Source: Haplodiscus bocki
Lineage: Eukaryota
Direction of reading: 5' to 3'
DNA: 64,000 bases
NCBI GenBank assembly: GCA_965655095.1
Contig: OZ296649.1
Span: 61,256,001 to 61,320,000, forward strand
How positions within the stretch are numbered: the first letter of the stretch is position 1; each line of letters starts with the position of its first letter. Below, in pieces: positions 48,557 to 64,000 of this stretch. Below the pieces are notes generated by a model. It did not search any database. It was not told the DNA's origin and saw only the letters and a program-made list of their open reading frames with translations. The position numbers and the translations under genes are program-made.

Positions 48557-51040
48557 TGAAACATGATGAATTAAATAAAGCTAACCTTTTCTGGAAGGCG
48601 GAAGAGAAGAATAAAAAGAATATAAAAGCTGAGGGAAAAAACAAACCGTTGGAGTTGCACAAAGAAATTTTACAAAACATTCTAACGGGAGCTTTTTTTC
48701 CTATTGGCTCCTGCTGCCAACCATGGCTGATACAAGCCTTTTTTCTAATGGTTTAATGAAACGGCAGCAAGCTGTTATTTTGGAGCCGATCTGGGAAAGG
48801 GACTCGACTATTATTCGCTTTCCCGTTCAACGGACGGGACTCCTTACTCCTCTTCTGACTTGCTTTACTTTACTCTCCTTCTTCCTTTTAACTTGGACAA
48901 ACTATTTCAAGTCCAACTCCCTTTCTCCCGTTTGCTTTTTGGACAAAAATTTTCAAAGTCCAATTCCTCTTCTCTCTTCTCCTCGGATAAAAATATTCTA
49001 AGTGCAAATTCAATTCCACAAAAAAATTCTAAGACAATTCCAAATACTGTCTTAGCCGCAAAAACAATTCGATCCCGCAAAAATATTCCAAGTCCCATTT
49101 TTTTCCTGACTTAGAAAAATTCCCTCTTTCTTGCTCACCCATTCATACTCTTGCCTCCGGAGTCTAAACGGTGTCCAATAACGCTAGCTTCGGAATTGGC
49201 GTGTGCTGATTCCGTGGATGAACATTGGTTCTGAAACAAGAGCGGATCTTGATTTGCACAAATTTTTATTTATTCGATACTATACTCTTGCCGCTGGAAT
49301 TTAAACAGTGTCCTCTAACGCTAGCTTCGGTATTAGCGTGTGCGGATTCCGCTGACGAGTTCCGATTCTGAGGCATGAGTGGATCTTAAACTGCACGACC
49401 CCCACGAGGTTCCTAGGAAAAGAGAATTGACGTTACATAGATCAAGTCTCACCTCGTCTGCTTCCGTGGTATATAGAATTCATTCTAAATTCCCAGATAC
49501 AGATTAAATATGCAGAAACCGTCCTTTCTCTTTGTAACATTCAGACAATTCCACTCTTTGCATTGATTTCAAATTTCCTATTCAAAAAATCCTTATTTCA
49601 TTCCTTTGCACGTCAGATCTATAAGAGGAGAGTCCCAGAGTTACCTGCAGATCATCCGACTGCATCAACGGTATCCGTTAGTTAGAGAGTTTTCTCGTTC
49701 ACAATGAGTGTATCTCTCTGAACAAATCTAACATTTTAAAAAGCCTTCCATAACATCTGCCAGACAAAAGTCTCGGTTGGAGAGAAAAGAACTAAAAAAA
49801 CTTTACAATGTTGCCGCAAAAAGCGAGCTTCTACCTGAGTATTAGACAAACGTTTAAACACATCGAACCCCGCAAGTAAATCCGGAGATTTAATCACGGT
49901 TTGAGAAAATCGGGGAAAAATAAGCTACCGGAATCAGTTGCTATGCTAACGCAAGTAGTACTAAGTGTAGACTAAAAGATAGGGTTTTATATACGACATA
50001 AACTCAACAAATGAAAAGTAAACTTAACGAAAAACTAAAACCAACAATAAAAATAGTGCTAGAAAAGTCGGAGAACAAGGTCTCCTTCCTGGCCCAAACA
50101 AGAAAAATATTTGCCTGTAGTACTTTATCTTCTGTTGAATACATCCCAGAAAACTTTGACTGGGAGTTTTTTAGAAATTAATTTACATTTTTGCATTTTG
50201 GTTTTTTCGAAATCTCTATGCTACTCGCAATTTGTATGGATTTTATCTAAACCAAAGCTTTTGTTAATTTTTATAATTGACAAAATTTTTTCAAATTTTT
50301 TTACTTTAAAATTGTCAGCATCCTAAATTCGATCAATTTTGTCTGACATTGCTGATAATTCTATAACTTTGTTACTTTTGGAAAGTTTCTTCTGAGCTAA
50401 AGATTTTTCAGGATTATTTACAAATAGGGGATAAAATTGCTGTGAGAGAATAAATCTTTGGATTGAATTGTAAAAATCTAAGAAGATTGCTGTAGCGAGC
50501 AATATGGAAAATATACTGGTTTTCCCCTACCCCCACTTTCATTTTTTGCACTGAGATGTGACTCAGTTCCCAATTCGCGCTATTTCATTTTCATTTTTAC
50601 TTGAACATACTGGATTTCCACGGCTGACTAAAGAATTGATTTTTTTCATTTTCGTTTTCCCTTTCATCGCTCATAAAGTCATTGCTATTGAACTTACGCT
50701 ATTTTTGTTGGCGAGGCCTGCAAGGCACCTGAGAGTAGATCAATAAAAGCTCCTGAGACTTATTTTCATTAAACAAAACAATCGTCGCGGCGCCACCGCT
50801 GCATTGATTTAGACAACAAAAGGAACGCTAATCACCTGCCGCACTAAGCGAGAGAGAAAAACAGAACCAGAAAGAAAAAAAATTCAAGTTCTAATTCTAT
50901 TTTCCGCATGCTCTTAGTAGTACAGCACACCCCCTTGCGACTTGGTGCGACCAGTGAGGCTAAGTCTAGGTTTTTTGAGCGATAGATTTGTAACTTCTTC
51001 CGGCGCTAAATTCTTTTCTTTATATTTCCTTTTGTGACAT
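48557..51040 (+). repeat. Putative 5' LTR (~2.4 kb)
   Basis: Begins TGAAACA; homologous blocks to 12.5-15.3 kb. 3' end uncertain: PBS-like TGGTGCGACC at ~50943, or TGTGACA ending at ~51039. Confidence 0.5.
49145..49396 (+). repeat. Tandem duplication (137-bp period) of a structured motif in the LTR
   Basis: Copies 49145-49259 and 49282-49396 align without gaps; both hold ACGCTAG-CTTCGG-(A/T)ATT(G/A)GCGT. Confidence 0.9.
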
Positions 51041-51136
51041 TTAACCTGGTCATATCCCTGGGAATTATAACAGTTGCTCTGATTAGAAAACTCTCGTCCA
51101 GTATTTCTCGAATTTCTCCAGTTTAAGCGTTTCGAA

Positions 51137-51705
51137 ATGAGAACTGTTTTGACCCTTGCGCTATACTTTTTCTTAGTTGCGATTATAGCCCTACTTCTGA
51201 CACTTACCTATTTTCTAGCAGTTTTTGAACTGGAAAAAATTTTTCGCAACCGAACTTCGGGAAATTAATTATCGAAATTGTGTTTGTTGCTAGCACCATT
51301 TTCTTTTCAATCTATGTTCTCAAGTTAAATTTGCTTAAACACTAGATTCCGCAAAAAATTGAGAATCTTCCACCAATTTGGGATGATATCGACGATGAAC
51401 GCCAGCTTATTCCATTGAATTGTCCGTGGACCATAACTTCTGAAGACGAAACTCTAAAAGTTGTCATTGCATACTTGAAATGGACTTTCAACTACGATCT
51501 TTGGATAAGAGTAACTGCTCATCCAGAGGGAAACCCACATATTTCGTAGCAAATAGACATCAATAAGCATAACCCGTTGCTTGAATCTCTATCAGAAGCT
51601 CTCGACGAATATGAAGATTTTCCTGAGACCAATTTGAACTCCAATCAACTTCATATTCTTGGAGAATTACTAGACTCGCTACCCTGAGAGAAGATAATAC
51701 CCACG
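51137..51705 (+). pseudogene. Two-transmembrane N-terminal extension / ORF0 upstream of gag
   Basis: MRTVLTLALYFFLVAIIALLLTLTYFLAVFEL..., then in another frame LIIEIVFVASTIFFSIYVL...WDDIDDERQLIP...; this second frame runs into gag. Confidence 0.5.
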
Positions 51706-61743: not shown

Positions 61744-61931
61744 TGAAGCTACTACTACAAAATTTTAGCTCCCACTTTGTGTTAGTGCCCACAAAGCGCC
61801 TGTTTGATTTTAAGGCATTTTTCAAAAGCTGTTCCCCTGAAAAAATAGAGTGAACTTCCACTGGAAAACCCCCCAAGACGCTATTTTTCTATGCTTCTAA
61901 TAGTTAATCCCTCTGAAGCAAACTTCCAGAG

Positions 61932-63814
61932 ATGGAAATTCCGCTGAAAAGCCCAGCGAAGACGCTATTTCTTTTTCAAATCCTCGTGTTTTATTCCGAG
62001 GTTGGTTACACTTTAGTTCCAGTTGCAGACCAGGTTGCCAAGAAATTTAAAGTGTCTCATTTTGACTGCGGCGCAATGACTGAAAACACTCTCTATGCTC
62101 TCAACCAGGTACGACAATGCCACATTACACCGGAGCAATTGGAAATTAGCCAAATGAAAATCATTCTCTAAACTAAGCATTTCCGGAAAGAACTTAACGC
62201 AACAAAATGTCGAATACAACATCCACGCGAGAAGTGGCACTGTGGACATAACGACCACAGCAGTAATGACCACACATTAGCCGGAATCACTAGCGACCTA
62301 GTGATCTCACCAGAACAATGCCGATCGCTTGCAAAGAGAAAAATGATCTATTTGGCTGATCAATTTTTGGGAGTTGAGTATGATACAAAGAATCCTATTG
62401 TAATCACAGACGGTTCACGAGCGATACTAATAGAAGTCACTGCACGGCACGTGGTTGGATTACCTGTGATACTTTCCTGCTTCATATGCACCGGACAATA
62501 CCAAAATCAGAATTTCAACTGGGAAAGTCCTATCCGACTAAGCTCAAGTACTGCAATGTGCACTGGAAGAGTTAGGTTGTGAGCCAACTTCATTGAACCC
62601 CTACGCCTACATATGGGACTACCCTGATAACTGTGTTTTATCGGTCCTCCGAACTGAAGAAGTTAACATGGTGAAACAAGGAACAAAATATTATATAATC
62701 AGTGGACCTGATTCAACAACAATGTTTGTCTTCGAAGTTAAAAACAATCCCCAAAAACATTGTGGAAAGCGGACAGATAGTTATGTGACTAATTACGATT
62801 CACTCTATGTAGCAACCATCAGTGGAGCTTTTGACCTGAGATCTGGACTGAATCTTGGCAAGGAACGGAATGGTGTCACTCAACTCCTACAGTACATAGC
62901 ACCCACTCAAAACAACGGATTTGCCCAACTCTATGCATACGACCCAAAAGACACGTCCCACCAGTCAAGCCATGAAAATATGTACCTGAATATGGACTAA
63001 GAAATGCACAGGGGAACAAAATTGGGTTACATCTTTTTCCAGAGCTCACGATTACTTCAAGCTTCTGAGATACAACTCTTGAAAAATCAATGTGAGTAAG
63101 AACGAACACAAATCCTCACTTTTCTGATGCTATCTCTCGAAAACCCACGGTTCGCAGGCTATATGCTCACCGGGAACCGTTCGATGTTTCTGGAAACTGA
63201 TGGCAGCTTAGCCTCTTCGTATCATTGCCCACTAGTTCTTTCACCACTTCATACAATGACCGAATGTTACGACCGGATCACGATACTCCTGCAATGCTTT
63301 GAAAAAGTTCTCGCAGAAACTCAATGTCTTTTCAAACAACAACAAGAATCCAGACAGTTTTCCTTATTATGCTCCTCGAACAGACTTCTATGTGGACAAC
63401 ATAATCTTACCCGGCTACTTCAAAGATCGGTTCTTGGACACATTTGGACCAGTTGCATACGTTCTTGAACACTGCGGAATCTATTTCCCCATGTTTTTTT
63501 TCAAACTTATAATAGATGTTGTGGTTATGGTAATACGCCACTTGGAAATAGCTAAAATGACTGGCGCGTCACCCGGATTAGGTAAGACCCTTCTAAGCGC
63601 CTCATATAATATTTTTCTCATGTCAGTTCTGAATTCAATGTATGATCCACGCGCGCCTACTCTCGCCAAGGTAGAAGAAGAGAAAAAAACTCTCTGTACT
63701 GAGGAAGAGTTACATGTTATGAGAGATGATACTAAGAAAAAGGAAGAGCAATTTTATCCAGTCATGAGTCCGGCTCAGGTTAACCAAGCCGTGACTCCAA
63801 TTTCCCCTGTTTAA
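61932..63814 (+). pseudogene. env: env-like glycoprotein of chuvirus / herpesvirus gB (class III) type
   Basis: Signal peptide; FDCG...YALNQVRQC...KCRIQ..REKWHCGH.DHSS...ISPEQCRSL cysteine pattern; C-terminal TM (CGIYFPMFFFKLIIDVVVMVI); apparent internal deletion near 63290. Confidence 0.8.
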
Positions 63815-64000
63815 AATTGTTTTATTTCTTTTTCTAGGCCGCATTACACTCAATCTTTCCTCACTGTGACGATTGCCTTTCAGTCCTTTCGGACCCACAA
63901 GAAGACTTCCAGCCCCTTAATCCTTCTGGTTTGGAATTCCCCACTAACTCTGTCGTCACTTTCCTATCTCCTATCTCCTCTCCTTCGAAGAAAACCTCCT

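Follow-up and report, generated by a model that had tools for sequence, protein, structure and literature searches.

The question raised by the stretch of Haplodiscus bocki DNA analysed here (the window: 64,000 nt, positions 61256001-61320000 of contig OZ296649.1, assembly GCA_965655095.1) is whether the retroelement at its right-hand end is a single enveloped Ty3/Gypsy element with genes of its own, and whether such an element has been described before. The original prediction, made from the letters of the window, had read this region as one element of more than 15 kb with structured repeats in a long terminal repeat (LTR), a transmembrane-bearing region before gag, a -1 frameshift, a macrodomain in pol, about 3.3 kb of accessory open reading frames (ORFs) on both strands and an env similar to herpesvirus glycoprotein B (gB), and had proposed it as a candidate for an undescribed, independently enveloped lineage. 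Comparison with other copies in the 1.5-Gb genome bore out each of these structural claims, including colinearity of the modules, while "undescribed, independently enveloped" proved an overstatement for this family. The explanation that we favour, with reasonable confidence, is a decayed copy of a 20-kb Ty3/Gypsy element whose env is of the gB/chuvirus type, which has some twelve conserved accessory genes and which probably behaves as a complex endogenous retrovirus of its animal host.

Layout and copies of the element

The copy in the window, which began 36 nt before the start at nt 48557 first proposed and ran beyond nt 64000 (Table 1), was a decayed Ty3/Gypsy element in which stops and frame breaks interrupted gag, pol, and env alike. 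The genome also had unbroken relatives about 20 kb long, with LTRs of 2.43-2.49 kb that were 99.2-100% identical within the pair in all five young copies examined; these copies also had a primer-binding site (PBS), a purine-rich tract and, where read, 4-bp target duplications. The gene order in this family (family A) was PBS, two small transmembrane ORFs, X1, gag, and a -1-frame pol with a macrodomain, followed by a cluster of short ORFs (one antisense), env, an ORF without a Met codon, and a TRAF-C/MATH gene. Pol, the accessory region and env stood in the same order in all nine older copies, drawn from the best env DNA matches and including two with 5′ deletions, and the same colinear order was found in the five young copies, which had been selected for an open pol frame of at least 1840 aa. 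At the 5′ end of one older copy stood two oppositely oriented LTRs, head to head.

The family has been amplified recently. Gag, pol, and env frames were all open in four of the five young copies, env was whole in four, and the three proteins were 98-100% identical among three of the five (protein level only). A search with a reverse transcriptase (RT) fragment gave 13,586 first-look candidates, which are not copy numbers, and 150 were scored; about 90 of the 149 best non-self matches, by hand count, lay in an open frame of at least 1840 aa. At least 89 of these 149 were followed on the same strand, no more than 15 kb downstream, by one of the top 150 TRAF-C matches, and in at least 86 this distance was 10.19-10.46 kb.

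Two sister families were present in the same genome, each represented by three copies picked for open env: family B measured 21.6-22.9 kb, and family C, in two of its copies, about 17 kb. Their LTR pairs were 98.2-100% identical and their Env proteins 55-58% identical to that of family A. The X, S, post-env and TRAF-C genes were kept in both, and the antisense gene was clear in B (33-38% identity) and weak in C. Because two sister families with env only about 55% identical keep most of the modules, the element is one unit and not a set of nested insertions. One family C copy had identical LTRs and a 4-kb internal gag-pol deletion with accessory genes and env kept, possibly a non-autonomous form.

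Pol overlapped the end of gag in the -1 frame in all five young copies. The predicted slippery heptamer GTTAAAC was found at the overlap in 9 of 10 other family A copies, and TTTAAAC at the equivalent place in families B and C. The order protease-RT-RNase H-integrase was that of Gypsy pols, with YIDD, DTGA, and HHCC motifs, and the named relatives were Ty3-gypsy pols with about 30% identity or less. BEL/Pao elements are marked by a single gag-pol polyprotein and a BEL/Pao RT; here gag was separate, pol lay in the -1 frame and only Gypsy-type Pfam domains were found. The window copy's own macrodomain ORF gave no Pfam match; in an unbroken copy the closest solved structures were TARG1/OARD1 (E 2e-27), and the catalytic pair of TARG1, which we take to be a lysine and an aspartate, aligned to the same residues. 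TARG1 is a mono-ADP-ribose hydrolase (PMC4695847). Family C pol also had a macrodomain. A quick RT tree (46 rows) placed the pols with a macrodomain, those of families A to C among them, in a single group (support 90); this group belonged to a lineage that a long branch separated from the named Gypsy pols. In one distant Gypsy pol, a macrodomain lay between RNase H and integrase, unlike the position in this family, which suggests a separate capture.

Accessory genes, Env, and predicted expression

The accessory ORFs are genes under purifying selection, and the claim that the element has accessory genes of its own was supported. In pairwise comparisons of natural copies, the ratio of nonsynonymous to synonymous substitution rates (dN/dS) was 0.07-0.28 for all twelve, with bootstrap 95% upper bounds of 0.13-0.90, below 1 in every case; ten ORFs were compared between two subfamilies, and S1 and S2, the weakest cases, within the older one. 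In a six-frame control covering ten of the ORFs (all but S1 and S2), dN/dS was lowest in the annotated frame every time, the minus-strand frame of the antisense ORF included. Three other long frames were rejected as genes, the first two being overlapping frames that served as controls: a 218-aa frame over gag (dN/dS 1.5), a 75-151-aa frame after X2 (1.4), and a 134-aa antisense frame over X3 (0.5, with stops).

The 3.3 kb between pol and env (nt 58623-61931) held ORFs on both strands; unbroken copies had up to three of the S family there. Before gag, only the first two ORFs were of the transmembrane kind, with one hydrophobic segment each; the third, X1, belonged with X2, X3, and X4 to a set of paralogues sharing C-x-W and T-x-x-x-W patterns, in which four distant members each scored above 200 of 200 shuffles, at low bit scores. 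The X genes changed in number and position between families, with four in A, four in B (three of them in tandem before gag), and one in C, between pol and env. The model of X1 had four strands and two helices at a predicted local distance difference test (pLDDT) score of 84. For the X family, Foldseek returned nothing at E 0.001, Pfam and Atlas nothing, and the best structural match (VIA) was PH-like with Z 4.9 and a root-mean-square deviation of 3.5 over 85 aligned residues, not above background. A SOCS/BC box at the end of X2 had been considered; Pfam gave no support, and it was dropped as X2 proved to be a weak member of the X family. No relationship was detectable between the X and S families, and searches with the antisense, post-env and S proteins gave no usable match. 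In the young subfamily accessory genes were turning over, S1 and S2 being the ones affected.

The ORF of about 465 aa that follows the post-env ORF ended in a TRAF-C/MATH domain (unbroken copy: TRAF structures in PDB, E 3e-13; Pfam, E 1e-16) and had no RING or zinc finger match in Pfam; the genome gave one zf-TRAF match. The window by itself did not reveal this gene, the two families of accessory paralogues, the predicted spliced exon described below or the young amplification, and the original prediction had understated the complexity of the element.

Env was 729 aa long in unbroken copies; in the window copy about 290 nt were missing near nt 63290. The Pfam family Monjiviricetes_fusion matched the unbroken-copy Env at E 9e-39 and the window fragment at E 7e-4. 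Its N-terminus was signal-like, a single transmembrane segment lay at the C-terminal end, and the protein had 16 cysteines but lacked a furin motif. A sequence search of PDB with Env gave 0 matches, and in Foldseek its model retrieved glycoproteins of xinmoviruses, chuviruses and herpesviruses (gB), the best at E 7e-13 with TM-scores of only about 0.2.

Signals consistent with splicing were conserved around env. About 280 nt before it, an ATG, two codons and a phase-matched consensus donor were present in 13 of 15 family A copies, the exceptions being the window copy, in which the donor was decayed, and one copy that did not match; the same tripeptide and donor preceded env in all three family B copies. 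The post-env ORF lacked a Met codon in both families, and an acceptor with a pyrimidine tract stood precisely at its opening in 10 of 11 A and three of three B copies; acceptor-like sites also preceded X2, S1, env and, directly, the ATG of the antisense ORF, which was about 190-200 aa long in unbroken copies. Among 15 of 262 joints in DNA contigs aligned to the accessory-env stretch, no donor-to-acceptor joint was present. These signals predict a spliced gene that skips env, in the manner of tax/rex, and an antisense gene in the manner of HBZ. Such a layout is that of human T-cell leukaemia virus (HTLV), with tax/rex and HBZ; the complex vertebrate retroviruses also include foamy viruses, with accessory genes of their own. 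The resemblance to HTLV would extend from the predicted start exon before env and body after env to the antisense gene and the -1 gag-pol frameshift; unlike complex Retroviridae, which have a class I, furin-cleaved Env and a retroviral RT, the element had Gypsy-type RT and integrase, an Env with class III-type matches and no furin motif, and its nearest named pols were Gypsy, so that the likeness would be one of layout only. Enveloped Gypsy elements are regarded as simple retroviruses with three genes; a family in which some twelve accessory genes are under selection, env is skipped by predicted splicing and one gene is antisense would mean that complex-retrovirus organisation arose more than once.

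Under the favoured explanation, a full-length RNA, primed by tRNA-Met for reverse transcription, would be translated into Gag and, by -1 frameshifting, Gag-Pol, and spliced RNAs would give Env and the accessory proteins, one product joining the three-codon exon before env to the body after it. The post-env protein, which has an acidic N-part, a stretch rich in arginine and a conserved C-domain of small size, may be a transactivator or RNA-export factor, and an antisense transcript, probably from the 3′ LTR, may yield a second regulator. The TARG1-type macrodomain might strip proteins or nucleic acid of the element of their ADP-ribose marks, the RING-less protein with its coiled coil and TRAF-C domain might intervene in the host's TRAF signalling as a decoy adaptor, and Env could allow particles to move from one cell to another, for instance from somatic tissue into the germ line. 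If the counter-defence and regulatory roles that we infer for these genes are correct, the captured macrodomain and TRAF-C gene would point to ADP-ribosylation and TRAF signalling as invertebrate defences against retroelements.

Relation to known elements and rival explanations

A gB-type env is common in Ty3/gypsy elements of many invertebrate phyla, for which an ancient acquisition has been argued (Chary and Hayashi, PMC13524379). The premise that envelope proteins of the gB/chuvirus type belong mainly to BEL/Pao elements was therefore not supported, nor was the description of an enveloped gB-type Gypsy element as new, the kind being already catalogued across invertebrates in that survey. 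The "ancient errantiviruses" of PMC13524379 share with this family a Ty3/gypsy pol, the gag-pol-env order, a gB/chuvirus-type env, an Env with signal peptide and transmembrane segment, and many near-identical copies; by its gag, pol, and env in order, its gB-type env and several copies more than 98% identical (protein level), the present family agrees with errantiviruses in the wide sense. That survey kept regions of at most 10 kb with a pol-env gap of at most 1 kb, whereas here the gap was 3.2 kb and the element 20 kb; its filters would drop this family, and more such elements may therefore be uncounted. The main text of PMC13524379 has no match for the words TRAF, macro or accessory, and the PBS of this family was not found in its element table. 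Thus, of the possibility that the architecture had been catalogued already, the part concerning the kind of element stood, whereas no description of this gene combination was found in the literature, Repbase, Dfam and subscription journals being outside the search. The family is real, colinear and recently active; it belongs among the gB-enveloped Ty3/Gypsy elements, and its set of selected accessory genes is of unusual size.

Parts of the gene set have precedents. Extra ORFs around env occur in other LTR elements (PMC6431247), macrodomain ORFs in fish epsilon-like endogenous retroviruses (PMC4977317), and captured ORF3s form a precedent in PMC5408684; PMC9911081, in its available part, only mentions LTR content. 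In Oikopleura, pol and env of Tor4b are separated by a gap, and an internal promoter serves env in some Tor elements (PMC4402516); the Drosophila MDG1/412 group has two small ORFs, one for a transmembrane fusogen-like protein (PMC11952523), unlike the transmembrane ORFs here, which were very short and stood beside a full env. The available text of PMC4402516 and PMC11952523 does not report this accessory gene set for either group. The nearest precedent for size and TRAF is Burro/GYPSM1 of planarians, which shares with the present family the giant Gypsy format, MATH_TRAF_C, env homology and many copies (PMC6431247) and from which it could follow that the element is a relative already catalogued in kind. 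We regard this as very unlikely, since Burro is built differently: it exceeds 30 kb and has one polyprotein, with BIR, BCL2, dUTPase and an in-frame env between gag and pol (PMC6431247), whereas here the element measured 17-23 kb, env was an ORF of its own after pol, TRAF-C followed env, no BIR, BCL2 or dUTPase match was found in Pfam, and the element had a macrodomain, an antisense gene and numerous small genes that stood apart from one another and were apparently spliced.

Other readings concern what the genes are for. That the element is a passive carrier of junk or captured host sequence in its accessory region, or that this region and env are separate nested insertions, as would have undone the original prediction, gains something from the likeness of TRAF-C and macrodomain to host genes and from the one true nested insertion, an 18-kb Polinton-like element, that the window copy does hold; it is nevertheless contradicted, and we give it hardly any credence, against the frame-specific purifying selection, the protein-level conservation across three families, and the fixed RT-to-TRAF-C spacing. 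It is also conceivable, and in our judgement unlikely, that the element is an intracellular retrotransposon whose accessory genes and Env are real and selected and serve replication in germ-line or stem cells, by vesicle budding or escape from silencing, without passage between cells or animals. The very large load of RT candidates in one genome fits intragenomic spread in a family known here from DNA; against it stands an Env that keeps its signal-like N-terminus, C-terminal transmembrane segment and 16 cysteines at a dN/dS of about 0.07 and is whole in four of the five young copies and in three families. The boldest form of the favoured explanation, an infectious and currently active invertebrate counterpart of complex retroviruses in which a Gypsy core and class III fusogen were joined by a separately evolved spliced transactivator, antisense regulator, ADP-ribose eraser, TRAF decoy, and two expanding small-protein families, is put forward tentatively, as somewhat doubtful.

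For the favoured explanation itself, the layout, the young amplification, the conservation in three families and the purifying selection on twelve accessory frames are observations; the following points weigh against it. The Env model was poor (pLDDT 42), so that the class III assignment depends on the Pfam match and on E-values from Foldseek, where TM-scores were low. The intactness of the young copies was biased by their selection for open pol, and dS was close to saturation for X2, the antisense ORF and env. In family C the post-env homologue had its own ATG, and the pre-gag transmembrane ORFs were lacking. S1 had an early stop in three of the five young copies and S2 was absent from all five; therefore not every accessory gene was needed for recent spread. 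Finally, the roles suggested for the X, S, antisense and post-env proteins are drawn from composition and position only.

Feature coordinates, terminal repeats, and neighbouring sequences

Table 1. Features of the element copy in the window (window numbering, continued beyond nt 64000 where needed)
Feature	Position (nt)	Strand	Remarks
5′ LTR, ~2.4 kb	48521-50942	+	Matches both LTRs of other copies; ends and flanks read
Pair of 115-nt direct repeats within LTR	49145-49396	+	77% alike
PBS, likely tRNA-Met(CAU)	50943-50960	+	Identical in all three families
Small transmembrane ORF 1, 38 aa	51010-51123	+	Maximum 19-residue hydropathy 2.4; dN/dS 0.08
Small transmembrane ORF 2, 43 aa	51137-51265	+	Maximum 19-residue hydropathy 2.8; dN/dS 0.19
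X1, 113 aa, X family	51346-51687	+	Non-transmembrane; one stop in window copy; dN/dS 0.27
gag, broken here	51706-53139	+	Retrotrans_gag (Pfam); 479 aa in unbroken copies; one CCHC knuckle
pol, broken here	53103-58622	+	Protease, macrodomain, RT, RNase H, integrase; 1847-aa frame in unbroken copies
Predicted -1 slippery heptamer GTTAAAC	53130-53136	+	In gag/pol overlap
TARG1/OARD1-type macrodomain	54050-54442	+	Between protease and RT; dN/dS ~0.07
X2, 140 aa, X family	58731-59159	+	dN/dS 0.07
Antisense ORF	59285-59800	-	Acidic/proline-rich N-part, conserved C-domain of ~115 aa; dN/dS 0.21 in this frame
S1-S3, three tandem ORFs of 73-83 aa, S family	60215-60898	+	dN/dS 0.19-0.28
X3, 127 aa, X family	60924-61292	+	dN/dS 0.18
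X4, 114 aa, X family	61285-61626	+	dN/dS 0.18
Predicted three-codon start exon and splice donor	61639-61647	+	Donor decayed in window copy
env, class III (chuvirus G/herpes gB-like) fusion glycoprotein	61932-63814	+	Stops, frame breaks, internal deletion here; dN/dS ~0.07
Met-less post-env ORF, 206 aa, start	63838-64000, on to ~64432 beyond window	+	Splice-acceptor-like opening; dN/dS 0.21
Polinton-like insertion, 18.2 kb, decayed	64432-82627 (contig 61320432-61338627)		Terminal inverted repeats and 6-bp target duplication
TRAF-C/MATH ORF, C-terminus deleted in window copy	82664-83779	+	Beyond insertion; identity from unbroken copy
3′ half of 3′ LTR	83770-85034	+	93.4% identical to 5′ LTR over 1256 nt

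The direct repeat pair in the LTR folded at z -2.9 against 200 shuffles, LTR and leader gave no Rfam match, and three of four letters of the target duplication of the window copy matched. An initial tRNA pattern search for the primer found nothing. The 18-nt complement of the PBS had 9 matches in the genome, and in all four loci read it was the 3′ end of a tRNA-like piece with a CAT anticodon loop; the primer is therefore likely to be tRNA-Met. ARAGORN found no whole tRNA gene at these four loci, one relaxed call being implausible. The pieces, including the CCA end, were dispersed in the genome as if reverse-transcribed primer tRNA had been inserted.

The insertion that interrupts the window copy at nt 64432 was assigned as Polinton/Maverick-like because of weak matches to an integrase, an A32 ATPase, and an adenoviral protease. 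Elsewhere in the window, a 196-aa open frame on the minus strand (nt 7116-7706), which had no Pfam match, is probably a piece of another repeat, and nt 12495-15250 are a solo LTR closest to those of family B, which contains tandem repeats and is flanked by a 4-bp target duplication.

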